A stretch of 64,000 nucleotides of DNA from Eledone cirrhosa (Eukaryota), in contig OZ024740.1 of NCBI GenBank assembly GCA_964016885.1, positions 349,866,001 through 349,930,000 on the forward strand, read 5' to 3'. Below, one piece after another: positions 25,632-60,135 of this stretch. Numbering within the stretch: the stretch's first letter is position 1; every line of letters starts with the position of its first letter. The translations under genes were made by a program, and so were the position numbers. Under the pieces are notes generated by a model. The model ran no database searches and was not told the DNA's origin. It was given only the letters and a program-made list of their open reading frames with translations.

Positions 25632-25733
<102 letters not shown>

Positions 25734-26969: not shown

Positions 26970-27036
<67 letters not shown>

Positions 27037-27057
27037 TATACATATATGCATGTAACA

Positions 27058-27420: not shown

Positions 27421-28744
<1,324 letters not shown>

Positions 28745-29301: not shown

Positions 29302-29371
<70 letters not shown>

Positions 29372-30929: not shown

Positions 30930-31041
<112 letters not shown>

Positions 31042-31221
31042 GTACTACATCATTCACAAAAAAGTATATTAACAAAATAATGCATATTACATTTATAGGA
31101 ACTTTACGGAACATGCTTTACTGAGACAATTCTATTTTCATATATAATTTAACAGCATTTTAAGTATAAGTTTTTTCAGCTGATATTCACAAAAATCTCA
31201 ATTATCGATAATGTGTGATAG

Positions 31222-31656: not shown

Positions 31657-32679
31657 TAATGTGTGAAAGCCTCTTTCACCTCGACAAATCTGTGATTAAC
31701 CCTAACAATGGCATAACCACGTGGCATTTTGAAGTAAAATAAAACTATGGCTATTCCACAATTTCCAAATGTAATCAGTCCTTAACATAGCCAATCATTT
31801 GGAGATGGAGTGTGATGAAGTCGTCTGATTAAAATGATAAAAATACTAAAGATACTAACAATGAAAAACTAATTAGAAAAAAAAAAGATAACAAACTAAA
31901 ATACACTACTTTTTATTGAAATTTAACTAGATTTATAACTACCCGCCAGGTGAATATTTTCATTAGCAATGATATTTTAAAATAGTCTAGATCTAACTAG
32001 AAATTAGCTGAATTGGCAACCTTGATACGCCAATCGATGATAACCAAACGGAATAAGTTACTAATGTACTGTAATTTGTTGGTACCCAAGCTTTCTTAAT
32101 TGATTCAAACGGCAATGCTGGTGTTAACCTTTAAAAACAATTGAGGCAAACTAATCTGCTCACGGAAGTGTATTACTACAAGTGATGGTGAGGCGGGGAC
32201 GTTGAAACAGGGAAGAACCTTCACAAGCATCATCTGATACAGCTTTAAGACGACTCCGGTCACGTTGAGTCCCTCATTGACACCTGAAATACAAACTCGT
32301 TTTTAAAAAGAAAACATAGAACAGCGTAGTTCCTGATTTACTGAACTAACTGGAGTTAAGCAACATAAAAAACAACAAAAAACAACAACAAAAGCAACAT
32401 TAGCACAAGTCAACAAATTTTATTTGAAAATTGGGTTCAGTATATGACTGGTATTTAATTACATCAGCCAAATGAGGGTGGCTGAAATGAAAAATTGTAC
32501 TTGTCAGATTTTAAACCGGATTGGTGACTTGTCATCTTCACGACTTAGACTGAAATATAAATAACCTTACCTACTAAGTGGACTTGTAGGTTGTATTTAA
32601 ACAATACTTTCTGTGTCTATCCCTTATAATTAGATGGGGTGTGAGGGTGTGTCCGTAAAACATATACATGTACACCAGG

Positions 32680-32945
32680 TCCGAAACACAAAGGAACCAA
32701 ACTCCCACTGTCACTGCCTCTATCTCTCCCGCTCTCCCCCATCTCTCACTATTATGAGCAAATAGGGGCCAACGCGCTGGCTGCCCCGCGGCTCCGGCGG
32801 ACAGAATAGAGAAGGCATTTCCTCGGAGGATGATGAGGGAGACCCGCTGGAAGAGCTATTCCAGCTCGCGAGGCTCATACCTGCGGGTAGCCAACTTTGT
32901 GGTGGTGGTGGTGAGTAGGAAGGTGGCCCTAGGACCAAGGACAAC
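32680..32945 (-). mobile_element. CRE-clade (RLE) retrotransposon 3' end; duplicate at ~43850-44115
   Basis: Minus frame VLGPRATFLL..EPRELE*LFQRVSLIILRGNAFSIL resembles the CRE C-terminal motif (L.QR.S....RGNA..I). Confidence 0.65.
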
Positions 32946-32957
32946 AGAGTTGTCCTT

Positions 32958-33302
32958 GGTCCAACTGGTAGACAACGTTTTATAGTAAAACACAATTTCA
33001 CATGTGCATCGGAAAATCTAATATATGTATTAACTTGTTCAGGTTGTCGAGAACAATACATAGGCAAGACCAAAAACAGCCTCCGCCAACGCATGACTGT
33101 CCATAGATCCCAAATCAAAATACGGGAATACAGGAAAATACCACTGAGTGAACACATTGATACCTGTGCCGCCCAAAATCACCCCAACTTCAGAATCTTT
33201 CCCCTCTACAAATTTAAAGATAATGCCACCCACACCCAGCGCATCAGCAAGGAATCTTACTTCATTAACAAATACGGACCCCGTCTAAACATTTCTCCCT
33301 AA
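32958..33302 (+). pseudogene. Penelope-like GIY-YIG endonuclease fragment; duplicate at 44128-44472
   Basis: [52 protein letters not shown]: IY..CxxC..YIG, R, H, E and LN motifs. Confidence 0.9.
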
Positions 33303-33442
33303 GACGAACCCACAACATACACACGTCAACATACATACCTACATCAGCACACATCTCTACCCACATATAAACACAATGACATACGTAAACACACATGCTC
33401 TATGGTGCAACACAAAAAAATATATGTGCATATATGTATGTA

Positions 33443-34649
<1,207 letters not shown>

Positions 34650-34651
<2 letters not shown>

Positions 34652-34790
34652 TTAGAGCATTAGGCTTGCAATCGAAAGGTTGTGAGTGAGGCGTAACCCT
34701 GCGATGGACTGGAGTCCTGGCCAGGGGAGAGTCACGCCATGGAACCGGGATAAGCACCGGCCAAATGAGCCTTCTGGCTGAAGACAGACT
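34650..34790 (+). mobile_element. Remnant of a second tRNA-derived SINE family; duplicate at ~46352-46490
   Basis: tRNA-like GGTTAGAGC..GGTTGTGAGT head fused to AACCCTGCGATGGACTGG..CCGGGATAAGC. Confidence 0.45.
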
Positions 34791-34959
34791 TTAGACTTTT
34801 TATATATAGTTCAAGGAGACCACAAACAGCGGTACAAAAAGTCTTATTGGTTTCACGCTTTATATGGAAAAGAGGAAAGAAGTTTCGACGTGTCAGGCTT
34901 AAGACGTTCTTCAGGAGTACAATTAGAGACAGGATCATACACAGACACACAGACACACA

Positions 34960-35163
<204 letters not shown>

Positions 35164-35697
35164 CCTCTCTCTCTCCTTCTCTCTACTTTTTCTCCCTCAC
35201 ACACACACATATATATACATAAACGCGTGTGTGTATACAGTTCTGCTCAGTTTCGCTCACAAGACTATTGGAGAGGTCTCCTGCCTAAAGTGCAATACTG
35301 TGGGGCTGGGGGCGACCACAATTTAAGTTAAAATACTCAATATATAAAGTAGAGTAGATATGTTTTCATATATTAAATTGACACCTCTTACAGGACTAGT
35401 TCTGTTTCCTTCACTTTAAGAATTCCCTGAGATTAACGCAATAAGAGTGAGGTAGAAAGATTGGAGAGGAGGGGAAGTTGGTGGTTAGTTGTGTGAGTGT
35501 TCTGTCTGTTGGCGGATTGCGAAGATTTAGATTCCAATCTAGGCTTAAAGAGGGGCGTTAATGCTAAGAGAGTGAAAGAAAGAGTGGGAAAAAAAAAAGA
35601 ATGAAAGAATCGGCAGTAATTTGTGGGACATGTGTCATTTAGGTTATAAGATGGTGAGGGGAAGGGCGGGTTAAGGAGACTTGGAGCGTCGATTAAT

Positions 35698-35769
<72 letters not shown>

Positions 35770-35773
<4 letters not shown>

Positions 35774-36664
35774 GTGCGTCAGAAAAGTTCCAGGACTGAT
35801 GTCACAAAAGATTTATTTCAAACCCAAACTTCACACTAAGAGTTTTCTCCTTCAAAGTAACCCCCCTGGAGTCTAATGCACTTTTCCATCCTTTTTTGCC
35901 ACGCTTGCATGCACTCCTGGAAGGATTCTTCCGGGATCCTCCGCAGTTCCGTCGCCACGGCCTTTTTGATGTCGTCCACGTCTTCAAAACGGATTCCCTC
36001 CGGGTCGTACTCGAAGATCCATGACTCATCACCTGTGATGACTGTCCCTAGAAAATCTGGTTCGGTTTCAAAACGCTCGAGGAGGTCCTGGCACACTTTC
36101 ATGCGTCGATCCTTCTGGTCATCGTTCAGCAGTTTTGGCACCTTCTTCGCGCAGACTTTCCGCATGTCCAAATCTTCAGTGACATTCTTCCAGACGCTGT
36201 CCCGATTCATGCCCAGCTCATTTGCCATCAGTCGAACAGTCAGCCGACGATCGCTACCAACCATCTGCCTGACACGCTCAACGTTGACCTCAGTCCTGGT
36301 TGTTGAGGGCCTTCCGCTCCTGGGGTCATCTTCAACGTCCTCGCGTCGTTCTTTAAACCTCTTGCACCACTCAAAAACACGTGAGCGTGACATCGTCTCA
36401 TCTCCATACACTTGCTGCAGCAATCCCAGTGCTTCTGACGGAGTTTTCAAGTTTGTTCGTTGCTCTGTGCTCATTGCTTGACAACCTGAAACAGAGGACA
36501 TGCATATAAAATTATGAAGAAAAAAGTTTGATCGCTGCAGAGAGCTAAGATTACAGTTACATACTCCAGGGGGATTACTTTGAATGAGAAAACTCTTAGT
36601 GTGAAGTTTGGGTTTGAAATAAATCTTTTGTGACATCAGTCCTGGAACTTTTCTGACACACCTC

Positions 36665-36665
<1 letters not shown>
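35770..36665 (-). mobile_element. Internally deleted mariner element, copy 2 (ORF 36474 to 35836)
   Basis: Near-identical to 24508-25403. Confidence 0.93.
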
Positions 36666-36715
<50 letters not shown>

Positions 36716-36859
36716 AATAAATTTAAGAAACATGCTGATGTTACATACATCTTTTATTCATTATCTTTCTTTGTGTTATTCCATCGTAACTACACACTAC
36801 GAATGTAGAGAGCTTTCTCCTGCTTACTCCTATTTTTACTAAAACAACTTCTACCGAAC

Positions 36860-36910
<51 letters not shown>

Positions 36911-36925
36911 CTGTGTGTGTGTGTG

Positions 36926-36981
<56 letters not shown>

Positions 36982-37306
36982 CCTGCATACGCACATATAA
37001 TATTACTGCAACATTTTAATCTAGAAATGTTATAGTCAATTAACTCCAAACCTATTAATAGCAATGATTTAGTAAATTATATAATACGATATAAGTATTA
37101 CAAAGAATAAAATGTAAACGAAATGACATACCAGTAAAGTATGATTATATAATGATGGATCTTACGTCTATTTCGACGATGAGCTTTCAATCAACTAAAC
37201 TTCCAACTAGTGAATTAACGTGTAAATGGTTGAGTATTCCACAGAGTATTCCTTGCCATTCTCAAGCCGAATTCGTATGAACCAATATGTAATGTGGTTG
37301 GACTTA

Positions 37307-37618
37307 TCTATTATATAAATGGCAATTTCTGTCTGTGTATCTGTGTATAACCAGTTGGCATCTACACCAGTGATCCGATCCTGATGAAAATGTACACATA
37401 TGTTAAGCTAATATTCAAAAAACAGGACTGGCTAATTGGATTTCAATAAAAATCAATAATGGAACCCCTGGGGACATCTTTACAATGGAGGTGGAAAGAG
37501 AAGACGTTTCAGTGAGAGAGGGGAAGAGGAGATACTACTACTGTATGTTAAACCCTCCCTCCTCCCACAACTGCGAATAACCCCACCTTTCCCGGGTATT
37601 ACCGGGTACTGCAGCTAG
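37307..37618 (+). mobile_element. Non-autonomous Helitron, copy 2
   Basis: TC..hairpin..CTAG between A and T, as in copy 1. Confidence 0.8.
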
Positions 37619-38120
37619 TGTATTATAAATGAAACCTAACGGGCTACCACACACTTTCAGTCGACCAAATTTTCCTCTCAAGGCTTGGGTCGACACCAGA
37701 TTATGATAAAGATAATTTCCCAAGATGTTACGCAGTGGGTGCGAATCCGGGATATTGTGATGAGTAAGCGAACTTCTTTACCTCTAAACCATGCCTACTT
37801 CTAATAAAGTATGACTATACAGAACTTATTTTAATAGAGCCTAACGCTGATAAATTTACTAAAATCTCTCACTGTCATAAGGTAATATATTTCACTCCCT
37901 AACACTATGTAGAATTTTGTTTATTTATTTTGTTTTGTAAGCAACATTCGGCTAGGAACTCTAATTCAGTGGTTTCCAGCCAACGGCTCAAATCAGAAAC
38001 TGGGTCGTGGAATAATTCTGAAAAGATCACCATTTATATGAAAAACGTAAATGAATAGTCAACACAGGAAAATGATACTGTACAATGGAGATATAAGATT
38101 AACGCTACACACACACACAC

Positions 38121-38179
<59 letters not shown>

Positions 38180-38216
38180 GCACACACACACACACGCACA
38201 CACGCACACACACACG

Positions 38217-38264
<48 letters not shown>

Positions 38265-38777
38265 TATACATATATGCATGTAACAATTGTTTCTACTTTT
38301 GGCACAAGGCCAAATGTATGTATGTAATAATAACTGTTTCTAATTTTAGGCACAAGGCCAGCAAATACCCAGTGCATTACTGGTACTTTATTTTATCGAC
38401 CCCGTAAGGATGAAAGGCAAAGTCAACCTCGGCGGGATCTGAACTCAGATCGTAAAGGGACGTAACTATGCTGGAAAGCATGGCGTCCGTCCCTCTACCG
38501 ATACTGCCAAACCACCGAACACGCATATATAAATATGGGCGAAGTGTCAAATTTTCATTACTTTTATTCAGGTGGATCACGCGTTTCGCGATTGATCAAC
38601 TCTAGGTTCGATCTGTATCGATTGGACCCGACTCTGGAATCAAAATATATGAATGTACATGATCAATATGGCGCTAACAACAGTTGCTATACGTTGCCGT
38701 CTATCAATTTTCCCAGTTATACTCTATTACATACGCGCGCGCATCTTTCTGCCTTTAACTCTATCTATTTATGTGTG

Positions 38778-38911
<134 letters not shown>

Positions 38912-39646
38912 GCGAGAGAGCGAGAGAGGCACATATATATATATATACAGTGGCGGACTAGGTCTAAAAATATTGGTTGAAGGGGTCCACCTACATATAG
39001 AATGCTATCATTTAATTTTTATAATGAATAAATAACATTTTCGAAAAATACATAAGTGGAAACAAAACAGTGCAATCAATTTTTTGTGGAAATATAACTT
39101 ACCTTCTGCAATAAAAAATATTATGTATTTTGCCAAATCCAGAGTCTTTCAATAATGACCAGAAGTCAACCCTAAATATTACTAGGAAAGCCATGAACGA
39201 CACCGCATCTTTTCAACTTTGATTTTGAAAGTAGGTTTATAATTATCAATTTTCGTTATCCTTTTGTAACTTTCTCGGTGGCCTAGTTGGAGGAATCGCA
39301 GACAGTGGTGATCGTGGTTTGAAGTTGGTCGGAAGTAAGTCTTTTCAGTTTTTTTTTATTGGTTGTAAAATAAAAACTGAAAAAGGCTACATGTACCTCT
39401 TGACCAAGATTGAACCCAAGGTCAGGATCTCCACCGTCTCTAGTACCTACCGCTAGGCCACAGAGACAACTACGAAAACCTTGTGAAAATTCATACTTAT
39501 AAACCTACTTTCAAAACTTTCAAAACAAAGTGTTGTGGTGTCGTTCATGTCTTTCTTAATGTTATTGCTACTACTTAAGGTCGACTTCTAAATCATTTGG
39601 GTGTTCCATAAACTACATCCTCGTTTTGTTTCACATCTATCTTGAC

Positions 39647-39716
<70 letters not shown>

Positions 39717-39735
39717 CGTGTACATATATATACAT

Positions 39736-39786
<51 letters not shown>

Positions 39787-40462
39787 GCGAGAGAAAGGTA
39801 GATAGATAGGTTCGCGCGCGTATGTAATAGAGTATAACTGGGAAAATTGATAGATGGCAATGTATAGCAACTGTTGTTAGCGCCATATTGAACATGTACA
39901 TTCATTATCAGCATATCATCTTGTATCATTATATCTTGTGTAAGATATTGTTTGAAATTGCTGTTCTTTTTCTCCGCTTAGTATGAAATACATAACTTCT
40001 TAACTTACACATGATAGTTTAATGAGCGCAAGCCATCTTGGCGCCTATGTTCTATCTGAAAGCTATGTCCAGAGTTGATGTTGAACTCAATACTGTAACT
40101 TCTCATGTCATCAGATTTTTCCTACGCATCATTATTGTTTTTAAGCTAGTTACAATGGACCATTAGTGAATTAAATATGGCTACGGAGAAAACTTGACAC
40201 AAACTGCCAGCTCCTTGACGGGTAACTCCGTGTGTATGTTATACCTATTTGGTCGTTCGACAATATGCAACACACACAAATACATGATATATACAACATA
40301 TACTATATGTATCTACAATATATATGCATTAAATCCATGAGTACATAATCTACTGGGTAATACGGACAACACTACAATTGTTCATGTTCAAACTTTACCT
40401 ACGGAAAGAAAGCTATTGAAACAATTGTTAACATCGCAGTAATGAGTAGTGACAAAAATGAG

Positions 40463-40493
<31 letters not shown>

Positions 40494-42075
40494 GAGCAGT
40501 TGTAGTAGTAGTAGGAGGAGGAGGATTAGTTGCTGTTGTAGTAGTAGTTACTGCTGATAGATGCTACAGTTGTTAACATACCGTTATATTTCTAGCTATT
40601 CCATGTATAGCATATCTAAGAATAAGTTATTTAAAGTATGCTTTGTATGAAGCGATAGACTATGATTTGTGGAAGATTGTGGCTGTTATTTCGCGCGGGT
40701 TGACCGATCCTGTTGAATCTACCCTTTTTAGTTGGAAGTTTTACATGAATCAAGTATATGATCGTAATTCAAAATTGCACAATGACAGCATATAAACAAG
40801 TTTCTTCACATTTAGATATAATATATTGAAGCTACATTGTTTTTTATGCGATTTGTACTAATATGCTTTTTGCTTTCATATATTAACTAAATTGGAGTGC
40901 CTTACATGTTTGCCACTCTCGTAAAATTTACAACAAGCTAAACCGGTATTTCTTACAACTGCAATTAATCATTTTTCAAAAGATACAATTTTAAACCACA
41001 CATTTCGAAAGTTTTGCATTTGCTTCGGCATTTTAGGGGGTTACAAAAATCCTTTAGATGATTTATAGAAAAAATTGCGCTCAACGAATTGTTCAGTACT
41101 GGGACTGGTTCACATTTGTTTTTCCACCTACCGCAAGGGAAACTGAACCAATTTCCTGTTTATAATAAAAAGAGAAATTTAGAATAGTGAAGTCTCAAAC
41201 TGAAACTTAGAAAAGTGAAAGCTTTACGTCTTAATCTTTACGTAGTGTTTTTGAATAATAAGATACATTTAAAACGACACATATCAAAAACGATAAAACG
41301 CTTATTCACGACATAAAGTAGATAAAAACGATGTAATGAAAGAAGAAAGAAACATTTAAATGACATAGATTAAAAACGATAAAAATCTCATTCCTTTTAC
41401 TTCTAAAGATTGAAATATATATTTAAAAAAAAATGACACATCCTCAACTATTTACGATTCAGTTTGGGGACACGGATATAGTCTTCTTGGGCATTTCCAA
41501 GTGAATGCCGTTGTACTTCAAGAGACATTTATTCGTCTTTTCTTTGTATCAATTTCATTATTTAAAAATATTTCATTATAAACGAAACTTTAAAATATTT
41601 TCTACACACCAATGACGATTTTTAATTCAAGTTGGTGATATAGAAGCAGGCAGTATGGGGTACCCGCAGTCTCAACAAGTGTTTTATTGTTTTAAATATG
41701 TAGTTTTCTTTCTCTTGTTAACAATATAGATAGTTTCAAATATTTCCTTTCGTCGTTTTTTACTACATATATAGTTATATATAATTTTCATTAATTTGGA
41801 AATGGACTGGAACAAATAAGAGTTTTATTACTTTTAATATTTTAAAGCATATATTATTCATATATTCTATATGGGAATGGGTGGAATTAATTACTTAGTC
41901 GTTTTTAACAGGCATAAATGCCAATTAACTCTACAAACAAGTTTATAGTTATAAGTTGCAGGTGGTCACCTAGCTTTTGCGTCATTTTAAATATAACTAT
42001 ACAGCAAGCATAAATATGCTTACACCAGCTGTTTTGCAACAACTGATTTTGTATGTCATGAACACAACAAATACG

Positions 42076-42173
<98 letters not shown>

Positions 42174-44612
42174 GTACTACATCATTCACAAAAAAGTATA
42201 TTAACAAAATAATGCATATTACATTTATAGGAACTTTACGGAACATGCTTTACTGAGACAATTCTATTTTCATATATAATTTAACAGCATTTTAAGTATA
42301 AGTTTTTTCAGCTGATATTCACAAAAATCTCAATTATCGATAATGTGTGATAGGGTCTTTGGAGTAATCTTACTGGATAAAGTACGTAGCTCGTAGATCA
42401 GAGAGTAACACCAGGTTGAGCCGCTACTCCGAATTGAGAGATCACAGCTCCGATACTATGGGCGTGTGGTAAGAATGTCTCAGGAAAGAATGGTTAGACA
42501 GATTTTACAGGCAAAAACCAAATGACAAGAGAGCCAGGGGTAGACCCCGAGCAAGATGGTTGGGTAACATCAATGAGCTTGGCTGATCTCGCTTGCGGAT
42601 CCAGCTTGATCAGTTGGAGACGGTTGCTGGAAGTTGCAGGACCCGCTGGAAGGAGTGTTTGAGGACTCTTCCTCCACGACACTCTCAAGAAGAAGAAGAA
42701 GAAGAAGGAGAAGAAGAAGAAGAAGAAGAAGAAGAAGAAGAAGAAGAAGAAGAAGAAGAAGAAGAAGAAGAAGAAGAAGAAGAAGAAGAAGAAGAAGAAG
42801 AAGAAGAAGAAGAAGAAGAAGAATATAATGATGAAAGCCTCTTTCACCTCGACAAATCTGTGATTAACCCTAACAATGGCATAACCACGTGGCATTTTGA
42901 AGTAAAATAAAACTATGGCTATTCCACAATTTCCAAATGTAATCAGTCCTTAACATAGCCAATCATTTGGAGATGGAGTGTGATGAAATCGTCTGATTAA
43001 AATGATAAAAATACTAAAGATACTAACAATGAAAAACTAATTAGAAAAAAAAAAGATAACAAACTAAAATACACTACTTTTTATTGAAATTTAACTAGAT
43101 TTATAACTACCCGCCAGGTGAATATTTTCATTAGCAATGATATTTTAAAATAGTCTAGATCTAACTAGAAATTAGCTGAATTGGCAACCTTGATACGCCA
43201 ATCGATGATAACCAAACGGAATAAGTTACTAATGTACTGTAATTTGTTGGTACCCAAGCTTTCTTAATTGATTCAAACGGCAATGCTGGTGTTAACCTTT
43301 AAAAACAATTGAGGCAAACTAATCTGCTCACGGAAGTGTATTACTACAAGTGATGGTGAGGCGGGGACGTTGAAACAGGGAAGAACCTTCACAAGCATCA
43401 TCTGATACAGCTTTAAGACGACTCCGGTCACGTTGAGTCTCCCTCATTGACACCTGAAATACAAACTCGTTTTTAAAAAGAAAACATAGAACAGCGTAGT
43501 TCCTGATTTACTGAAATAACTGGAGTTAAGCAACATAAAAAACAACAAAAAACAACAACAAAAGCAACATTAGCACAAGTCAACAAATTTTATTTGAAAA
43601 TTGGGTTCAGTATATGACTGGTATTTAATTACATCCGCCAAATGAGGGTGGCTGAAATGAAAAATTGTACTTGTCAGATTTTAAACTGGATTGGTGACTT
43701 GTCATCTTCACGACTTAGACTGAAATATAAATAACCTTACCTACTAAGTGGACTTGTAGGTTGTAATTAAACAATACTTTCTGTGTCTATCCCTTATAAT
43801 TAGATGGGGTGTGAGGGTGTGTCCGTAAAACATATACATGTATACCAGGTCCGAAACACAAAGGAACCAAACTCCCACTGTCACTGCCTCTATCTCTCCC
43901 GCTCTCCCCCATCTCTCACTATTATGAGCAAATAGGGGCCAACGCGCTGGCTGCCCCGCGGTTCCGGCGGACAGAATAGAGAAGGCATTTCCTCGGAGGA
44001 TGATGAGGGAGACCCGCTGGAAGAGCTATTCCAGCTCGCGAGGCTCATACCTGCGGGTAGCCAACTTTGTGCTGGTGGTGGTGAGTAGGAAGGTGGCCCT
44101 AGGACCAAGGACAACAGAGTTGTCCTTGGTCCAACTGGTAAACAACGTTTTATAGTAAAACACAATTTCACATGTGCATCGGAAAATCTAATATATGTAT
44201 TAACTTGTTCAGGTTGTCGAGAACAATACATAGGCCAGACCAAAAACAGCCTCCGCCAACGCATGACTGTCCATAGATCCCAAATCAAAATACGGGAATA
44301 CAGGAAAATACCACTGAGTGAACACATTGATACCTGTGCCGCCCCAAATCACCCCAACTTCAGAATCTTTCCCCTCTACAAATTTAAAGATAATGCCACC
44401 CACACCCAGCGCATCAGCAAGGAATCTTACTTCATTAACAAATACGGACCCCGTCTAAACATTTCTCCCTAAGACGAACCCACAACATACACACGTCAAC
44501 ATACATACCTACATCAGCACACATCTCTACCCACATATAAACACAATGACATACGTAAACACACATGCTCTATGGTGCAACACAAAAAAATATATGTGCA
44601 TATATGTATGTA

Positions 44613-44682
<70 letters not shown>

Positions 44683-45023
44683 AAATATGTATGTGTATAT
44701 ATATATAGTGAATATCATTTCACACCTTTTATTGTTAAGTTCTATTAAGAGAACCGATTTTACTGAAAAAATCGAATAATGTACACCATTTTACCAGGGG
44801 AAAAAAATACTGGTACACCCCCCCCCCCCCCACACACACATATATACACACACACACACGCGTACATCAACATACAAAGAGACTTATATATACACACACA
44901 CACACACACGCACTTCTCCGTATAAGACAAAAGCTGAAAAATATCTTTTGACATGCTAAAATACCCCCCATTGCTTTCAGACACATTCTTACTGACCATC
45001 CCTGCCACCATGAATTACTCTGC

Positions 45024-45144
<121 letters not shown>

Positions 45145-45738
45145 ATCTTAATAGCCATTTGACACACATCGCTGCTAACCATTATCACAACATCGAACAC
45201 CTTACTACTACTACTACTACTACTACTACTACACACACACATACACACACACACACATATTTGTTGTGAAAGAGTCATTTCTCAATCTTGGCGCAAAACC
45301 AATTTTTTATTCACATGACCTCTACCGACCAATCAAAATTGTTTTGACCACAAGAATTTTTGCTGGAGCCACTTTTTTAACATAAAAACAGTCTTGGCGC
45401 AAAATCAATTTTTTACATTCACATGACCTCTACCGACCAATCAAAATTGTTTTTACCACAAGAATTTTTGCAAATTGGAGCCACTTTTTTAACATAAAAA
45501 CAGATAGAATTCCCAAAACTAATCAGATCAGAGCAAACAGCACGGACACTCTATCTCAAAATTATTTTTGAAAAGCATTTAGAAATGCGCAACCGGTAAA
45601 AACTTAAGAACTTAAAACCACAACTGAATACTAACCCATACAATCACTAATACTCTTTTATTCCTAATTAAACCATTTTTCAACTGTGAACAATTTGTCA
45701 GCATTTTCTATTCCGTTTACCAATATATATATATATAT

Positions 45739-46347
45739 ATACATTATGAAGAGAGAAGAAACATTTAGATATAATTAGTAATAAAATGTATCATACCTAA
45801 ACTGCCCCTAAATTCCTCGACTACGTAGTTTCGTGGCATAAACAAAAACAATATATCATAAAGACATAGAGTCCCTGCGAGGTCTGCCGACTTATCAAGA
45901 GGATACCTCATTTTACTAGTCTCAAGAACACGTCCACACGACGTGAGAAAGAATCCCAAAAGGCGGAGGGGGAGATAGTCACGCGATATAACGGTCGAGA
46001 AACGGAGCTAAGCCTCTTATAACCACGAAAAAAATACCACGGAGGCGGAGGGGGTATTCATATCGAGGCCGCAGAAGAGGTGGTGAAGAAGGCTAGAAGT
46101 ATGAGTAATGGAAGCTTTCCAGTTGTCCCCACACTTCAAAGATTGCTCGACCAGAGGGAGTTATTAACAATATATTTAGAAACACACAGATACATGCGGA
46201 CACACACATATATACATGAATGCATCCGCACCCAACTGTGAGTTAAGGGTGCCAACTTCACCGATGTTGCTCAATGAATGACCGGGACAGACCAATTCAG
46301 TTGAACTAGACTGAACCAGTATCAGAGTTAAAAATACATTATGAAGA
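45739..46347 (-). mobile_element. ~600-nt non-coding, terminally redundant, hammerhead-bearing insertion (retrozyme-like)
   Basis: Absent from the paralogous site at ~34617-34650; 14-nt direct repeat ATACATTATGAAGA at both ends (period 595); inserted in (TA)n. Confidence 0.7.
45814..45903 (-). ncRNA. Type I hammerhead ribozyme, U3-A8 core variant
   Basis: UCCUC-UUGAUAA-GU(C)GGCA..UGCCAC-GAAAC-UACGUA-GUC^GAGGA: perfect 5-bp stem I, G10.1-C11.1, palindromic stem III, GUC cleavage triplet. Confidence 0.7.
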
Positions 46348-46658
46348 TATATGGTTAGAGCATTAGGCTTGCAATCGAAAGGTTGTGAGTGAGGCGTAAC
46401 CCTGCGATGGACTGGAGTCCTGGCCAGGGGAGAGTCACGCCATGGAACCGGGATAAGCACCGGCCAAATGAGCCTTCTGGCTGAAGACAGACTTTAGACT
46501 TTTTATATATAGTTCAAGGAGACCACAAACAGCGGTACAAAAAGTCTTATTGGTTTCACGCTTTATATGGAAAAGAGGAAAGAAGTTACGACGTGTCAGG
46601 CTTAAGACGTTCTTCAGGAGTACAATTAGAGACAGGATCATACACAGACACACAGACA

Positions 46659-46722
<64 letters not shown>

Positions 46723-47194: not shown

Positions 47195-47280
47195 AACGTT
47201 GTTGTTGTTGTGGCTGTTGTTGTTGCTGTTGTTGTTGTTGCTGTTGTTGCTGTTGTTGTTGTTGTTGCTGTTGTTGTTGT

Positions 47281-47312
<32 letters not shown>

Positions 47313-47801
47313 TTCTTGGTTGTTGCTGTTGTTGTTGCTGCTGCTGTTGTTGTCGTTGCTGCTGCTGTCGTTGATGCTGTTGTCGTTGCTGCTTCTGCGG
47401 TTGGTGTTGCTGCTTCTGCGGTTGTTGTTGTTGTTGTTGTTGTTGCTTTAAAGCTAAGCAGTGAGTGAAGGACCGTCACAAACAAATAATAATTGGTATT
47501 CGTTATTTGATGGAGGACTGCGTTGGTTTTTTTATTGTTTAGTTTTGAAAGCTGATGGTGGTGATCGTGTTGTTGTTGTTGTTGTTGTGGTTGTTGCTGG
47601 TGGTGGTGGTGGTGGTGGTGGTGATGGTGATCGTGTTGTTGTTGTTGTTGTTGTGGTTGTTGCTGGTGGTGGTGGTGGTGGTGGTGGTGATGGTGATCGT
47701 GTTGTTGTTGTTGTTGTTGTGGTTGTTGCTGGTGGTGGTGGTGGTGGTGGTGGTGATGGTGATCGTGTTGTTGTTGTTGTTGCTGGTGGTGGTGGTGATG
47801 C

Positions 47802-47832
<31 letters not shown>

Positions 47833-48110
47833 GATGCTGTTGTTGTTGTTGTTGGTGGTGATGGTGATATGTTGTTGTTGGTGGTGGTGGTGATGCTGTT
47901 GTTGTTGTTGGTGCTGGGGTGGTGGTGGTGATGGTGATCGTGTTGTTGTTGTTGTTGTTGTTGTTGCTGGTGGTGGTGGTGGTGGTGATGGTGATCGTGT
48001 TGTTGTTGTTGCTGTTGTTGTTGCTGGTGGTGGTGGTGGTGGTGATGGTGATCGTGTTGTTGTTGTTGTTGTTGTTGCTGGTGGTGGTGGGGTGGTGGTG
48101 ATGGTGATCG

Positions 48111-48144
<34 letters not shown>

Positions 48145-48345
48145 ACTGTTGTTGTTGTTGTTACTGTTGTTACTGTTGTCGTTGTTGTTATTGTTGCTGT
48201 TGTTGTTGTTGTGTTATTGGTGGTGGTGGTGGTGGTGGTGATGGTGGTGGTGATGGTGGTGGTGGTGGTGTTGTTGTTGTTGGTGGTGGTGGTGTTGGTG
48301 GTGGTGATGCTGTTGTTGTTGTTGGTGGTCGTGGTGGTGGTGATG

Positions 48346-48377
<32 letters not shown>

Positions 48378-48514
48378 GATGTTGTTGTTGTTGTTGTTGT
48401 TGGTGGTGGTGGTGTTGTTGTTGTTGTTGGTGGTGGTGGTGATGCTGTTGTTGTTGTTGTTGGTGGTGGTGGTGATGCTGTTGTTGCTGTTGGTGGTGGT
48501 GGTGGTGGTGATGC

Positions 48515-48545
<31 letters not shown>

Positions 48546-48549
48546 GATG

Positions 48550-48581
<32 letters not shown>

Positions 48582-49048
48582 GGTGGTGATGGTGATGATG
48601 TTGTTGGTGGTGGTGATGGTGATGCTGATGGTGCTGGTGGTGGTGGTGGTGATGCTGTTGGTGGTGGTGGTGGTGTTGGTGATGGTGATGCTGTTGTTGT
48701 TGTTGTTGGTGGTGGTGATGGTGATGCTGTTGGTGGTGGTGGTGGTGGTGGTGGTGGTGGTGGTGGGGATGTTGGTGGTGGTGGTGTTGTTGTTGTTGTT
48801 GGTGGTGGTGGTGATGCTGTTGTTGTTGTTGTTGGTGGTGGTGGTGATGCTGTTGTTGCTGTTGGTGGTGGTGGTGGTGGTGTTGGTGATGGTGATGCTG
48901 TTGGTGGTGGTGATGTTGTTGTTGTTGTTGTTGTTGGTGGTGGTGGTGATGTTGTTGTTGTTGGTGGTGGTGGTGATGCTGTTGTTGTTGTTGTTGGTGG
49001 TGGTGGTGATGCTGTTGTTGCTGTTGGTGGTGGTGGTGGTGGTGATGC

Positions 49049-49079
<31 letters not shown>

Positions 49080-49083
49080 GATG

Positions 49084-49115
<32 letters not shown>

Positions 49116-49794
49116 GGTGGTGATGGTGATGATGTTGTTGGTGGTGGTGATGGTGATGCTGATGGTGCTGGTGGTGGTGGTGGTGATGTTGTTGGTGGTG
49201 GTGGTGGTGATGGTGATGCTGTTGGTGGTGGTGGTGGTGGTGGTGATGGTGATGCTGTTGGTGGTGGTGGTGATGATGGTGATGCTGTTGGTGGTGGTGG
49301 TGGTGATGATGGTGATGCTGTTGGTGGTGGTGGTGGTGGTGTTGGTGATGGCGATGCTGTTGGTGGTGGTGGTGGTGGTTGGGATGGTGATGCTGTTGGT
49401 GGTGGTGGTGATGGCGATGCTGTTGGTGGTGGTGATGGTGGTGATGCTGTTGGTGGTGGTGGTGGTGATGATGGTGATGCTGTTGGCGGTGGTGGTGGTG
49501 GTGATGATGGTGGTGATGCTGTTGGTGGTGGTGGTGGTGATGGTGATGCTGTTGGTGGTGGTGGTGGTGGTGGTGATGGTGATGCTGTTGGTGGTGGTGG
49601 TGGTGGTGGTGATGGTGATGCTGTTGGTGGTGGTGGTGGTGAGGTTTCAATTTCGACGGGCGAAAACAACAACCTGCAATTAATAAAGGAATTAATCAAA
49701 AAATAGATAAATAAAATCAAATAAAATAATTTAAAAAGAATTCAGCTCGTTGAGATGATGAAGATGATGATGGTGGTGGTGGTGATGGTGATGG

Positions 49795-49835
<41 letters not shown>

Positions 49836-50550
49836 ATGATGATGATGTTAATGATGATGATGGTGAGGAATCGTTTGAGGATAGTAATAATGATGATGAT
49901 GATGATGATGGTGGTGGTGATAATGATGATGGTGATGATGATGACGACGAGGATGATGTTGATGGTGGTGGTGGTGGTGATTATGTTAATGGTGATGATG
50001 ATGATGACGATGGTGATGATGACAATGATGATGATGTTGATGGTGGTGGTGGTGGTGGTGATGGTGATTATGTTAATGGTGATGTTGATGACTATGATGA
50101 TGTTAATGGTGATGATGATGTTTATGATGATGCTGATGATGATGATGAGGATCATTATGATGATGATGATGATGATAGTGACAATATGGCGACAGTTATA
50201 CAGATAATTGTTTCTACTTCAGGCACAAGGCCAGCAAATACCTAGTGCATTACTGGTACTTTATTTTATCGACCCCGTAAGGATGAAAGGCAAAGTCAAC
50301 CTCGGCGGGATTTGAACTCAGATCATAAAGGGACGTAACTCTATGTCGGAAAGCATGGCGTCCGACCCTCTACCGATACTGCCAATAATGATGATGAGGT
50401 GGGATTAACATAATGAGGATGACAAATAGTAGTGATGGAAATAGGGATGTCATTTACCATGTCGTTAATAACGACGACAATGATGAGGGAGGGATGATGA
50501 TGATGATGATGATGTTGATGGTGATGATGAGGTTGATGTTGCTGAACAAC

Positions 50551-50592
<42 letters not shown>

Positions 50593-50634
50593 GTGATGAT
50601 GGTGATGCTGAGGATGAGGATGATGTTAATATAA

Positions 50635-50666
<32 letters not shown>

Positions 50667-50749
50667 AAGAACATGATGATGATGATGACGATGATGAAAT
50701 GATGACAATGATGATGATGGTGATGACGATGATGATGGTGATGATGATA

Positions 50750-50780
<31 letters not shown>

Positions 50781-50826
50781 CGTTAATGGTGATGATGAAA
50801 ATGATGATGATGATGATGATGATGAC

Positions 50827-50859
<33 letters not shown>

Positions 50860-50862
50860 AAA

Positions 50863-50913
<51 letters not shown>

Positions 50914-51023
50914 AAAGATGATGATGATGATGATGATGATGATTATAATGAGGATGTTAATGATGAAATTGTAATGATGCTTGTATTGGTAATGATGATA
51001 AATGACAAAAAAGAGGTAATAGT

Positions 51024-51088
<65 letters not shown>

Positions 51089-51099
51089 CAGCAGCAACT

Positions 51100-51159
<60 letters not shown>

Positions 51160-51235
51160 TCAGCAGCAGTAATAGTAGCAGTAGTAGTAGAAAAATAGTA
51201 GTAGTAGTAGTAGTAGTAGTAGTAGACAAAATAGC

Positions 51236-51279
<44 letters not shown>

Positions 51280-51390
51280 ACAAAATAGCAGTAGTAGTTG
51301 TAGTAGTAGTAGTAATAGTGGTAGTAGACAAAATAGTAGTAGTAGTAGTAGTAGTAGGTGGTGGTGGTGGTGGTGGTAGCAACAGCAGTA
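47195..51390. repeat. ~4-kb strand-biased compound trinucleotide tract: (GTT)n, then GGT/GTT/GAT/GCT, then (GAT)n, then (GTA)n
   Basis: Directly visible; interrupted by short unique islands and a SINE at 50207-50385 (minus strand). Confidence 0.95.
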
Positions 51391-54889: not shown

Positions 54890-57800
54890 CTACAGTAAAC
54901 AGATTAGCACCTTAGTTAAGTGCCAGTTGATGAGGGCGATCGTCAACAACAGGTGGTGGAGCTCTCTCAAGAGAGCAATTAGAATAGAATCGATAGCATT
55001 TAGCAAGGAAGTAGCTTTAGAAAAAAACAAAACTGAAAAGGAACTGGTAGCTAAAATAGAAGAGGCACTTAGGAATGGCAGTACAGCTGAGGTGCTAGCG
55101 GCGAGAACGGCACTAGACCAGTTCTTCAACGTGAAACACGAAGGTTGTATTGTCAGAAGTAGAACACGTGCTCTAAGAAACGAGGGAGCCAAAGCTGTTA
55201 GCTGGGCCCGAGTGGCAGAGGCGAAAAGTGGCAACAAATCCACAATTTGGTCTTTGCAAGACAAAGATGGACGCATTATACTTGAATCCAAGCAGATGTA
55301 CACGACCTTCCAGCAGCATTTTGCACAACTGTTCAGGCAAAGCGGTACATTGAGCGAGGTGATGGACTTCAGCTTCTACCTCGACGGCGTACCGCGACTC
55401 TCGAGCACGGATGCGGAAGGCCGATCACAGCGGGCGAAATAGAAGATGCCCTAGGCTGCTGCGGGAAACGCAAATCACCCGGTTTAGATGGTCTACCCTA
55501 TGAGTTTTGCATAGGCATGCCAGACTTGTTCTCTGGCATCCTCGAAGCGGTCTACTACAACTGGCAGCAGAACGGGATGATTCCCAGTTCTGTAGGCAGA
55601 GGCGTAGTAACGCTGATCAGGAAATATGAGAACAAGGGGGGTGAGATAAGCAATTTCAGGCCCATAATTCTGCTCAACACAGAGTTAAAGATTTTGGCCA
55701 AGGTATTAGCAGCAAGGCTGGTGCTTGTCGTCGAGAACCTAGTAGGGGAAGCCTAAACGTGGGCAATCCCGACCAGGTCCATACACGACAACCCCCACTC
55801 ATGCGATACATCATAGAGAGGGTAGGGTGTAAACCTGGCTTCGGTGGAGCTCTGATCAATTTAGATCAGTCTAAGGCATTTGATAGGGTCGACCATCAAT
55901 ACTTGGAAGCAGTTCTCAAGGCGGCCGGCTTCGGTCCCGTCTTCAGAGGCTGGATAGCTGCCATGCACGCCAGCATCTTCTCGGCAGTCAAGGTGAATGG
56001 CTACCTATCAGAGCCATTCCAAATCATGCGTTCCATCCGTCATGGATGCCCTCTCTCCTCCATTCTGTATGTACTGACTCTCGAGCCGTTACTGCGGAAG
56101 TTGGAGCTGTTGCAAGGCATCCTGATCGAACCACGACTGCGCCGACGACATAACCGTAATGGTGTCGAAAACCTCGGAAATCGGGGTAATCAGCAACCTA
56201 TTACAGGAATACGTAATATTGACAGGAGCAAGACTAAACCCAAACAAGTCTGTCGGTTTGCAACTCGGCACATGGAGAGGCAAACCCATGCCTTCCGACA
56301 GTGTCGTTGGACGCTGGACGGAAGGACCGGTGAAATTGCTCGGAGTCTGGTGGACAAGAACTGGAACAAGGTCACGGCGAAGGTGTTTGCACTCACCCAG
56401 AAGTGGGCTGAGTGCAAACTCTCCTTGAAAGGTCGAGCGGAGGTGGCGAACACTTACATAGCGTCTGTCATCTACTACCGTTTGACAGTCGTGCCTTGCC
56501 CCCGCGAATACCTTACCAAAATGGAACGCCTACTCTTCAAGTTCTTCTGGAAGAAACAGGCTCCATTGGTGAGGAGATCCATCTGCTGTCAACACCCTTC
56601 TAACGGAGGGCTGGGCATACCGTGGCTGATGATGCACAAACACGCGCTGAGACTACACCATCTCCAGGTATTCCTGACCGGTGAATCGGTGTGGCTGTCG
56701 TTTGCGAGACAAGCTCTTCCACAACTCGTCTCACTAACAGAGCTGCAGTCCTGGGTCAAGCGAAGACCGAAAATGGGTGCCTGGCACCTCGAGTGCCTAC
56801 AGGCGTTCACAGCCCTCTACCAAGCGGAAACGGCAATCAGCGGAGACTCTATAATGAAGAATGTAAGTCGTTAGATCAGAAGGCATTAAATAGACAAACT
56901 CCATTACAAGTATGTACTTCATTTATTCTTGCTTCACACTGTGAAACTCATTTTACCTGTATTTCCATGTGTGAGATACGACAGGATATGGCGTATCGAA
57001 GAATCGACGTTTTGACGATAGTAGATTCTTCTGTCTTAACTTCCGTTCTCTGGACTAAGTAGTCCAGTTACTTGTATCGCTACGCCGAAGGTTTTGATTG
57101 GCTCACACTTCAGCCAATTTACTTCCGTAACATTTTTCTTCCGCCGAAGGAAAATACATTTAATTACAAAGGATATATATTACTGCTACAACTCCACTTC
57201 GACATTCTATAGGGGATTAGTGGAGTATAAGTGCGACGACGTTCTCGGGGAAACTCTAGGCATGGAGGAGGACGAACTGACCAGTCTGTTCGGGAGGATT
57301 TTCCGTCCACGGCCTATGGATAACTGGCCTGGCAGTGCTACCGAGGAGCTCTACCAGTTCGAGACAAAATCTACAGGCACGGACGCCCTGGCAGAGATCC
57401 TGCCAAAAGGACCTGTCCAAGATGCGAGCAGGACATCGAAACCGTTCTGCACGCAATTGTTCAGTGCGCAGGGGTGACCGACCTGTGGAATTATGTCGAA
57501 CAGCTGATGTCACGTGTGGGACGCATCCAGTTATCAGCCGAGTCCATCGTGAGGATCACCCCACCGCCTTCATTTAAGAACGAAGGAGAGGCGGTTTTCC
57601 TCTGTCTGGTGGCTATGGCGAAAGAGGTAATATGGTGGACGAGGTTAAAAGGACTGAGGGCAAACACCTTTCTCCCCGGACAACAACTTATCCCCTTCTT
57701 TAAGTATCACTTCAGAAGGAAGGTGAGAGTGGAGAGAGAGGTGCTACAACCCAGTAAATTCGCTGAAAAGTGGGTGAATGTGGCGAAAATGGCCCGAGTG

Positions 57801-58080
57801 AATGGGGCTTCTCTGTATATAAACCTGTAAGTTGAGGAAGATAAACAGAGGGAACACAGGGACACCTACAAAACGTGTTCCTGGTGTTGAAAGTTGTTCT
57901 ATCCACGGGGTGTAAAACAACCCTGCAGTAACGTCCCCCCCCCCTATTGAGGATTTCAATTGTTATTTTATTATATATAGTTTATTGTTATTTATTAATG
58001 TTAAAGTTATTTTTATGTAAAACCCCCGCCGTCACGTCTAGTAATGTCCCATTTTTGTACGCCTCTGTGGCAAATAAAGA
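54890..58080 (+). mobile_element. 5'-truncated, degenerate Tx1/L1-clade LINE
   Basis: Frameshifted homolog of ORF2 at 60135-63575 (LDQSKAFDRVDH, GCPLS, LSLKGRAEV); 3' UTR ends GTGGCAAATAAA plus (TATC)n. Confidence 0.92.
56850..57190 (-). mobile_element. Solo LTR (341 bp) inserted in the Tx1 copy
   Basis: Interrupts GGA GAC TCC ACT; 4-bp TSD ACTC (56846-56849 and 57191-57194); ends T(A)TA..TACA; AATAAA on the minus strand. Confidence 0.75.
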
Positions 58081-58307
58081 TATCTATCTATCTATCTATC
58101 TATCTTGATAGAGTAAGACACGCTTCACATCGGCTCCGCTATTCCATCGGGATTTACCCTTACTATTGTAAGTACCGGATAAATTTTTCAGTGCAACACA
58201 TTTGGAACACTAACCCCTGTTTTTTAGGGAAACATTTTTGCATTTACCCCCTTTTTAGGGGGTAAAATAAATATCTATTTTTGCCGAAAAATTTCTTTCT
58301 TGGCAGC

Positions 58308-60135
58308 ATGGCGGAAAAGATGGCAGACATGTCTGCCATTAGCTCTGCCACGCCCCCCAAGTCTGAAGAACAAAAAATAATTACAACAAAATTAGACAAT
58401 GAAACAAACAAAGAAAATGAAAAAACAAATGTTAAGGAAAATGAGCAAACAGAAAACAAACAAACAGAAAATAATACAAATAACAACAGGGCAACTTTCG
58501 CCCAGAAAACAAAACAATCCATTACATACACACCAATTGACCTAACTGCCGCCAGAGAAAAACTGGCCGAAGCAAAGAAACACATTGTTTTGGGGGAGAA
58601 CGGAATGTTTTCCATTAACTCCCCCCCAGAATTCAAGAAAGCCAGAGCAGAAAACACAGTTCTCTACAGAACTATACTGAACCAGACAAGAAAGCCAGCA
58701 CAGCCCAGCCAAATGGAAATAGAGTTAGTCCTAAAAGACTATATGAAGAATATTCTCTTCATACGAAAGGACCGACTCTATGGCAGCATTTCGGTCCTAA
58801 CAAGAGACAAGGAAACGGCGGAGAAGCTTTCCTTAAGCCCACTCTCATCGACAACGTATAGCTTCTATCCCTCCTACATGGGTAGAAGAACACAGAGAGT
58901 AAAAGTAAAAACAATGCTGCCCACAATGGACTTCTGGTGGGCTATTGCTGGCTTCATTGATATGGGCGAAGACACAATGCTGTCAATGGGGAAGGCAACT
59001 GGAGATGCGTTCCTGGGAATGGGCCTCGACATACTAGTCCAAATGAGGCCCGAAAGAATAGCACAAATCCCGGATCGCATCTGGCTGGATGACCTTACCC
59101 CAATAGACATAATTGTAGAGGGGAGAAGACCAGCATGCTATTTATGCATGGAAAGGGGACACGTTAAGGCTAACTGCCCGAAACGTATCCCCCAAAAAGG
59201 ACTATTGCCCACACCCACCACAAACAGTACACCAACACCACCCACCTCCAAAAATACACTAATACCACACACAGCAAACAAAATACAGACACCACCAACC
59301 ACAAACACAACACAAACATCACCACCACCAGCACCAAACACAAGCACGACACAAAAATCACCACCACCAACCACAACACAAACACCACCATCACCAACCA
59401 CAAGCACGACACAAACATTACCACCACCACCACAAAACCCATTCCAAACAAATAATAAAAAAAACAGTAACAAATCTACCCCTCCCGCAAAAAAAAAAAC
59501 AACCACACAACACGTCCCTCCCACCTAGCGCTGAAGAGTTTCCCCCAACTTCTGAAGAAGAAGGAGGAGAAGCCTTCAGACAAGTTAAAAGAAAAAAAAG
59601 AAAACACACACCCAGCACACCACAAATAACCCACACACAAACACCAACTCCAATCAAAAACACCCCACCCTCAACAAACAAAAATAAATCTGCGCCTCCC
59701 CTCTCCGAAACATTGACAGCATCACAAAAAAAGACGTTGCAATACACATATATAAATAAAGAAAACAAAAAACTGGTTAAATTAATAAACAATAACCCTA
59801 TGGTGCAGACCGAAGGGCCAAACTTTATCTCAACAGAGAACTTCACCCATTTAAAAATGATAAAGGTCCCTCTGGACCTTTATCGTTCCTTAAAAGAACA
59901 ATTTAGACGGGACGTGAGCCCCCCCTGTTTAAAACCGTTGAATCGCGTCCTCTTGAAAGATTTCCCCATAACCGCCCCTCTCCCTGACACAACTCCAAAT
60001 ACCCCAACCCCACCACACACGTGTACCCCCACACCACCACAAAACATCCCTCCACCCAACACACCTGATGCCATGGAAATTACGCAACCCGGAGAGGTAA
60101 GTGCTTTTCTTTCTTCACTTTCAACACCAAAATAG
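58308..60135 (+). CDS. Tx1 ORF1 (gag-like, CCHC zinc knuckle, P/T-rich linker) with a +1 frameshift in A11 at 59489-59499
   Basis: CYLCMERGHVKANC knuckle; removing one A joins it to ..EAFRQVKRKKRK.. and ORF 59713-60135. Confidence 0.82.

Follow-up and report, generated by a model that had tools for sequence, protein, structure and literature searches.

The closest described counterparts of the element reported here are the metazoan non-LTR retrozymes, and, as far as the accessible text of the two surveys goes (PMC7229834; bioRxiv 10.64898/2026.07.22.740005), they have in common with it a non-coding unit arranged head to tail, a single type I hammerhead ribozyme (HHR), a GC content below 50%, strong predicted self-pairing, the lack of LTR, PBS and PPT, the occurrence of dispersed monomers beside tandems, and the presence of Penelope-like elements (PLEs) in the same genome. 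These retrozymes have been argued to be non-autonomous PLE derivatives (bioRxiv 10.64898/2026.07.22.740005; PMC7761336), and tandem type I HHR repeats yield circular RNAs (circRNAs) in coral, mussel and axolotl, with most metazoan circles being predicted to leave the HHR free (PMC7229834). The 2026 survey counts as active those families in which at least two consecutive full units each carry a complete HHR (bioRxiv 10.64898/2026.07.22.740005), and no cephalopod is among the species named in the available portions of the two surveys. The 595-nt unit of our locus exceeds the 150-450 bp first reported and lies within the 51-972 bp of the 2026 survey; it differs from the described retrozymes in its U3-A8 core, in a stem II of 59 nt as against about 4 bp, in having no visible target-site duplication (TSD), and in a ribozyme that is predicted to be blocked in the monomer.

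The second point of comparison is provided by the PLEs themselves, for which we draw on the accessible parts of PMC8557442 and its supplement. The Neptune, Hydra and Naiad clades share with the unit a (TA)n microsatellite target, which hides any TSD, and the formation of partial tandems; Neptune and Hydra elements additionally share a sense hammerhead shortly before the 3' end, and Chlamys elements such as MRC1 are likewise non-autonomous head-to-tail derivatives, which form partial tandems without canonical HHRs. Unlike the (TA)n PLE clades, the unit has no protein. Octopus PLEs have been published in the same work, including Hydra-1_Obim of Octopus bimaculoides, which has a sense 3' hammerhead and a preference for (TA)n; the hammerhead of this element has another sequence and a C3-G8 core, and the stem III palindrome of our unit has no match in the PMC8557442 supplement. 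A literature search, with Repbase/Dfam, subscription papers and some supplements outside its scope, returned no report of a cephalopod retrozyme family. The element type, the U3-A8 core and the PLE link have thus all been published, and it is the cephalopod family that is likely to be new.

The window, by which we mean the whole 64-kb stretch of Eledone cirrhosa DNA that was analysed, holds a tandem duplication (23706-34990 versus 34982-46692 by self-BLAST) whose copies have diverged by 0.46% (40 substitutions in 8645 non-repeat columns), and the insert at 45739-46347 is the sole break in it. The filled site reads CCA(AT)9-[ATA CATTATGAAG A ... 595-nt period ... ATA CATTATGAAG A]-TATAT-GG, and the empty paralogous site (34613-34651) reads CCA(AT)17GG, with no TSD-like remnant. 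The original prediction of an insertion that is present in just one of two near-identical duplicates, sits in (TA)n (here (AT)9 to the left and (AT)3 to the right) and carries a terminal redundancy with a period of 595 nt therefore stands: a 595-nt unit is accompanied by a terminal repeat of 10-14 nt, in which a 14-mer recurs at both ends, the left ATA and the right A being equally assignable to the microsatellite as microhomology, and CATTATGAAG is the unambiguous 10-nt core, with two occurrences in the window, one at each end of the insert. The coordinates of these and all other features are collected in the table.

Since the insert occupies one of two copies that differ by 0.46%, it must be young or polymorphic, whether the copies are duplicates or haplotypes. 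The start, join and end of the duplication all lie within (CA)n tracts, and the 11-kb duplication may have arisen by unequal exchange between microsatellites or may represent haplotypes joined in assembly. The earlier description of the insertion as recent is upheld by the presence/absence pair and weakened by the copy itself, which is 13 substitutions and 3 indels away from the sequence that dominates public run X4. It is accordingly conceivable, albeit very unlikely, that recent activity has been overstated, with the insertion predating the duplication and slippage between the (AT)n flanks having deleted it from copy 1, or with the two copies being assembly-joined haplotypes. The distance of about 2% from the dominant sequence in runs X1, X4 and X10, compared with 0.46% between the duplicates, would favour such a reading, as would the (CA)n borders of the duplication; against it stand the clean empty site with its intact (AT)17, the fact that a 2% distance can be explained by, and in our view points to, a subfamily or another population, and the fact that a haplotype pair would still imply a polymorphic insertion. 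Loss from copy 1 is possible and less likely than recent gain, and the question bears on the age of the element, not on its nature.

Table. Features of the insertion, its target and the neighbouring Penelope-like fragment (positions are those of the window)
Feature	Position	Strand	Remarks
Full non-coding repeat unit, 595 nt, 42% GC	45753-46347	- (putative RNA strand)	self-closing in X4 record 16 and X10 record 12
Extra copy of the first 14 nt of the unit; putative RNA 3' end, likely the first-copied cDNA end	45739-45752	-	
3-nt microhomology with the (AT)n target	45739-45741		within the extra 14-nt copy
Second 14-nt repeat copy, putative RNA 5' end	46334-46347	-	other copies run on into 45753
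Left part of (AT)n target	45723-45741	none	
Right part of (AT)n target, (AT)3	46347-46352	none	
Empty paralogous site, (AT)17	34616-34649	none	
Type I hammerhead motif	45814-45903	-	descriptor, fold, shuffles
Stem I, 5 bp	45903-45899/45818-45814	-	
Core UUGAUAA	45898-45892	-	U3=45898, A8=45893
Stem II, 59 nt, branch-free irregular hairpin	45891-45833	-	G10.1=45891 pairs with C11.1=45833
GAA	45832-45830	-	
Stem III ACUACGUAGU, 10-nt palindrome	45829-45820	-	
C17 (GUC triplet)	45819	-	predicted cut 45819|45818
Competing GAGG/CCUC hairpin, predicted	45899-45909	-	pair probability 0.86-0.89 in the circular ensemble
13-bp A/U-rich hairpin between cut site and insertion end, predicted	45764-45801	-	z -3.0 minus versus 0.0 plus
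Long irregular hairpin with UG/CA microsatellite-like arms, predicted	46181-46244	-	z -3.1
5'-proximal hairpin, predicted	46270-46327	-	2 of 2 listed variants keep pairing
3' fragment of a PLE with C-terminal endonuclease (Neptune/Nematis-type), GIY-YIG	44089-44472	+	outside the insertion; second copy 32919-33302 (+)

Part of the element is contained in 20 of the 24 public runs listed, under the labels of 17 organisms and 16 studies; no RNA run is among those listed as containing it. The analysis of junctions and depth covers four of these runs, with 45714-45750 skipped as a repeat, and an exact head-to-tail junction is present in three of the four: nine contigs of X1 pass from 46347 straight to 45753, record 12 of X10 joins 46027-46345 to 45751-45804 (exact junction 46345 -> 45751), and record 16 of X4, with 621 nt, consists of a 591-nt unit and a 30-nt overlap, being self-closed and flank-less. 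The Logan assembly graph is built with k=31, and a 14-nt repeat is too short to close such a graph, so real junction molecules must exist, with the proviso that short-contig graphs reveal the junction and not the length of the array. As the head-to-tail unit is thus present in the source material, the terminal repeat is the surplus end of a copy that spans 1.02 units, which is what had been proposed from the window in describing the insert as a copy slightly longer than one unit; the 1.02-mer is the only copy within the 64-kb window. The further proposal that the repeat is not a simple TSD is borne out as well, an ordinary TSD being ruled out by the absence of the repeat from the empty site together with the junction in X1, X4 and X10. 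The same closure bears on the reading of the insert as a solo pLTR, left by 5' truncation of an autonomous element of Neptune or Hydra type and followed by a second, 14-nt truncated copy. Its 3'-end anatomy and target do match those of PLEs, and according to the accessible part of PMC4209133 the majority of PLE hammerheads occur as solo motifs in truncated copies, but the unit is self-closing at about 591 nt, no ORF intervenes and the insert is without PLE protein similarity, which leaves this reading decidedly improbable; an autonomous relative having part of the unit in common is possible.

In X1, from organism A, 7928 contigs fall on the stretch and the summed depth over the element is 1.2-4.2e5, the longest X1 contigs listed having depths of 2-12; Logan depths are not copy numbers, and it is from depth that we take organism A to hold thousands to tens of thousands of copies. 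Organisms B and G each yield a flank-less element contig with a depth of 8-13, about 1/30,000 of that in X1, which accompanies other high-copy repeats of the window. For organism D, 1938 Mb of raw Hi-C reads contain no element read outside the CA-repeat patch, although 48% of the words were present in a further run of this organism. Horizontal transfer, which the 17 labels had suggested, was set aside for B, D and G on these grounds, namely D reads without the element and a low-depth, flank-less consensus in B and G; small shares of the words in the remaining runs carry no weight as evidence, and trace contamination or diet is the simpler reading for the three other organisms analysed (B, D and G). 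Trace carry-over of a very high-copy repeat is a caution for horizontal-transfer claims that are based on k-mers.

With regard to content, the original statement that the insert has no recognisable coding capacity agrees with our results, the longest stop-to-stop frames that lie in the insert or extend across its ends measuring 72-105 aa and tblastn with five PLE proteins giving a best E of 0.25. Three classes were considered and rejected: a tRNA-derived SINE, as no tRNA head is detected by ARAGORN (0 tRNA genes on the insert) or Rfam, both of which degenerate heads can escape; a plant-type LTR retrozyme (type III HHR, LTRs of about 350 bp, PBS, PPT, 4-bp TSD), as the insert has a single type I motif and a 14-nt repeat; and an autonomous EN+ Penelope-like element, as there is no RT plus GIY-YIG ORF and the unit closes without one. 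What is found is the combination by which non-LTR retrozymes are recognised in sequence (595 nt, type I HHR, GC below 50%, no LTR, PBS or PPT), along with the insertion hallmarks of EN+ PLEs at a single locus ((TA)n target, partial tandem, sense HHR near the 3' end). Judged on these sequence properties, the element probably belongs to a family of non-autonomous, Penelope-dependent non-LTR retrozymes. Rfam gives no match in the window at the gathering threshold, and the unit may be a sizeable unannotated repeat that this resource has overlooked.

The hammerhead motif lies on the minus strand, as first described, and is complete: it agrees with the core consensus in its 3-8 pair, GAA, A15.1-U16.1 and NUH triplet (UUGAUAA / GAAA / GUC, 45898-45819), and the predicted cut position coincides with that of the earlier reading. 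A relaxed descriptor matches once in the whole window, at this motif; since the same descriptor finds 5 matches in 30 block-shuffled windows, the motif alone is not rare at the scale of the window, and dinucleotide shuffles of the insert produce a match in 2 of 3000. The profile search that had been proposed as a check did not return the motif, Rfam yielding six chance-level matches and no hammerhead even at E<=10, which the 59-nt stem II probably explains. Elsewhere, the motif scan gave no match in viral contigs and none in genome contigs, and two matches in metagenome contigs were set aside as bacterial-looking chance occurrences with no similarity beyond the 19-20-nt motif. The recognition of U3-A8 as a compensatory variant has firm precedent in the accessible literature, in which it is a natural covariant that is active in vitro (PMC3088659) and occurs in the hammerheads of the Cercyon PLEs of S. 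mansoni, with about 1,300 matches (PMC4209133). With the minimal hammerheads of PLE pLTRs, Cercyon included, the unit shares U3-A8, a 5-bp stem I, an enlarged stem II, the G10.1-C11.1 pair and a palindromic helix III for dimeric cleavage, and it has a helix II bulge as in D. virilis Penelope; it differs in a helix III of 3 bp with an ACGU loop, in having no extra base between positions 9 and 10.1, in a far longer stem II and in the lack of an ORF (PMC4209133, as far as accessible).

The C3-G8 covariants that the original prediction had sought among other copies do not occur among the variants listed, with X4 and X10 keeping U3-A8. In the X4 contig, this core and stems I and III are identical to those of the window copy and all of its differences lie elsewhere, which makes U3-A8 a family trait; record 13 of X10 has the same 5' core. 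Folding of the hammerhead segment alone shows no significant signal relative to shuffles (z -0.26; -0.95). For the isolated motif, the constrained hammerhead fold reaches -22.9 against an MFE of -24.0, and with two strands the double hammerhead at -61.7 kcal/mol equals the cofold MFE, compared with -48.0 for two separate monomers, the 10-nt palindrome giving a perfect predicted dimeric stem III. The proposal that the palindromic stem would suit dimeric cleavage is therefore supported for the isolated motif in these models. The structure has no canonical short stem II, and the partner in a loop 1/loop 2 contact could, on the modelled fold, be an internal loop located 6 bp from the core.

Within the whole unit, the predicted picture is that of a strongly structured RNA in which the ribozyme is held off. 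The circular fold has a z of -5.0 on the minus strand and -0.5 on the plus strand (60 shuffles each), and the linear fold of the minus strand a z of -5.9 (0 of 100 shuffles as good), the signal coming mostly from the hairpins at 46327-46270, 46244-46181 and 45801-45764. In the monomer, the GAGG/CCUC hairpin is predicted to sequester the 5' arm of stem I, so that, together with long-range pairs, this upstream hairpin blocks stem I, whose probability in the circle is about 0. The active monomer would cost 7.4 (linear) or 9.1 (circular) kcal/mol, and the double hammerhead lies 12.3 kcal/mol above the two-strand MFE, 1.1 better than two free monomers. Cleavage, if any, would on this modelling need co-transcriptional folding or protein help, as has also been reported for the hammerhead of the Poseidon PLE PAc of Anolis (PMC11167929, in its accessible part).

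Natural variation is compatible with this structure. Of 40 variant rows listed, 26 fall in the element, and leaving out five in the CA-repeat patch (46189-46201) and the rare second allele at 45805 gives 20 variants, of which 10 keep pairing, 3 break it and 7 are unpaired, where 4.8 and 7.1 would be expected to keep and to break pairing (P 0.004 and 0.025, respectively); since the structure was predicted from the window copy, the test is supportive and not independent proof. In the stem II extension, three of three variants are A-U/G-U exchanges. These results speak against a satellite that spreads as DNA (eccDNA, rolling circle or unequal exchange) and in which hammerhead and folding would be relics. 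A tandem, high-copy unit among recombinogenic microsatellites would suit such a satellite, and a DNA product by itself is no proof of an RNA step; a folding signal that is confined to one strand and accompanied by pair-keeping variation, a PLE-like target and 3' anatomy, and the absence by eye of Helitron or TIR termini together render this origin highly improbable.

On how a Penelope-dependent retrozyme of this kind might have moved, the insertion itself provides one constraint: since its ends are located some 77 nt downstream from where the cut is predicted, the template was uninterrupted at that site and internally primed. In a full retrozyme cycle, tandem arrays would be transcribed on the minus strand; two palindromic stems III would then pair and the RNA would be cut after the GUC at 45819; a host ligase would circularise the resulting monomer of 595 nt, whose predicted fold keeps the ribozyme switched off; the endonuclease of a Penelope-like RT/GIY-YIG protein acting in trans would nick (TA)n, and the 3' end would pair with the UAU at 46336-46334, a position some 77 nt downstream from the cut; finally, the RT would go once round, over the re-joined cut site, and continue for 10-14 nt more. 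For this cycle with self-cleavage and a circle, we consider the chances evenly balanced. The U-rich tract with the putative priming site comes after the hairpin at 45764-45801. The idea that this site is the most accessible region was dropped: it lies within the longest unpaired run (30 nt) of the circular MFE and ranks 18th-102nd of 595 windows in ensemble accessibility.

The same Penelope-dependent family could instead have been copied from a linear tandem transcript that had not been cut, or by a template jump of the RT, with no circle and with the hammerhead as a weak or protein-assisted pLTR passenger, an option to which we give appreciable but clearly lesser weight. The accessible text on PAc reports that its RT initiates internally at AT-rich nicks, that uncut RNA is the dominant substrate in vitro and that HHR cleavage is dispensable for insertion (PMC11167929); as a Penelope-like RT thus starts internally and uses uncut RNA, a circle is not required for the DNA seen. 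PAc and the unit have in common an RT start away from the RNA end and the hammerhead cut, and an AT-rich target; PAc is autonomous and starts without target homology in an AC-rich stem-loop, whereas the start in the unit, deduced from one junction, would lie at a 3-nt microhomology in a U-rich tract. Further points in favour of a linear template are the modelled cost of the active fold in the full unit (7-12 kcal/mol), which also counts against the circle cycle; a junction depth near that of the body (10.2 versus 12.6 in X10, a flat 7.8 in X4), by which tandem DNA is likely common; a roughly twofold excess of depth on the RNA-3' half over the 5' half, noisy but as expected from 5' truncation; and the partial tandems that PLEs and the non-autonomous Chlamys elements form without canonical HHRs. 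Against it are the fact that the window copy and X4, which differ at 13 other positions, have the same core and the same stems I and III (small numbers), strand-specific folding that covers several parts of the unit, and a 10-nt palindrome that is predicted to form a perfect dimeric stem III. Weighing against the circle cycle, only one of nine Xenopus retrozyme dimers was cleaved in vitro in the accessible text of the 2026 survey (bioRxiv 10.64898/2026.07.22.740005). A ligated circle and an uncut tandem transcript leave the same DNA, and the family assignment holds under both.

Retrozyme mobilisation has so far been inferred; here, the exact junctions of a filled site and its empty counterpart record the outcome of a single event, namely a TA target, a microhomology of 3 nt, a start some 77 nt away from the predicted cut, read-through of the cut site and 1.02 units. 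Thousands of copies in one genome would permit circle and linear tandem, as well as fixed and permuted ends, to be tested against each other, and the family would show whether a hammerhead that combines U3-A8 with an unusually long stem II is under selection; the element possibly yields an abundant circRNA in a model cephalopod.

A Penelope-like partner, as the original prediction suggested, would fit the (TA)n target and the 3'-end anatomy by analogy with the PLE clades above. The GIY-YIG fragment in the window is 5'-truncated, 44-73% identical to five RT-EN proteins and followed by a CA-rich UTR and then (TA)n. This neighbouring Neptune-type fragment was rejected as the parent, as there is no convincing similarity and no hammerhead behind it was detected by the relaxed descriptor, which is not exhaustive and missed the hammerhead of contig L003 (U-U at the base of stem II); the region after its TA tract, compared with the unit, gives scores that 4 and 8 of 200 shuffles reach, in six uncorrected tests. 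A PLE alignment search gave 0 of 61 candidates among viral contigs and 1 of 9 among genome contigs, the latter being L003, in which positions 1-2021 are an animal Neptune-type PLE within a bacterial genome assembly (contamination). By eye, its 3' UTR holds a minimal sense hammerhead at about 1846-1888 whose centre is ACGT; a U-rich tail follows after about 52 nt, and then (TA)n. The score of this UTR against the unit is 27, with a shuffle mean of 28.9, and neither of the two PLE 3' regions compared, those of L003 and the window fragment, has significant similarity to the unit.

Cephalopods have high ADAR activity, and one may ask whether an octopod-specific retrozyme circRNA is edited, with A-to-I changes being written into the genome by reverse transcription. 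On the RNA strand, the window copy differs from the majority sequence by six A-to-G and two U-to-C changes (P about 0.035, post hoc); four of the six A-to-G changes fall on predicted A-U pairs, and among 17 transitions on this strand 11 are A/G (P about 0.05). The same bias is explained equally well by selection for pairing on its own, A-U to G-U being tolerated, so that the lead is weak and we consider editing unlikely; our literature search found no paper on editing fixed in element copies.

The window is otherwise rich in transposable elements and microsatellites, and its SINEs presumably resemble octopus SINEs. An intact-looking L1/Tx1-type non-LTR element (58266-59528 and 60273-63575, +) encodes a 420-aa ORF1 and an 1100-aa APE-RT-zf ORF2, the latter with 36 protein matches, of which the only one with a named source is from Argonauta hians at 64%, in keeping with an octopod host; an older, decayed copy (54891-58105, 69-74% identical) lies just upstream, and both end in (TATC)n. 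The non-LTR retrotransposon 3' fragment at 5322-8183 lies between 742-nt direct repeats with (ATGT)n tracts and has a 325-aa frame (6291-7268, -) with no Pfam match. Mariner-like and Tc1-like transposase remnants, named by eye, are found at 24574-25494 (-), 35836-36753 (-) and 18413-19372 (+), with terminal inverted repeats and (TA)n flanks, and about 4 kb of G-skewed trinucleotide repeats (GTT/TGG/GAT/GTA) at 47198-51357 contain long low-complexity frames.
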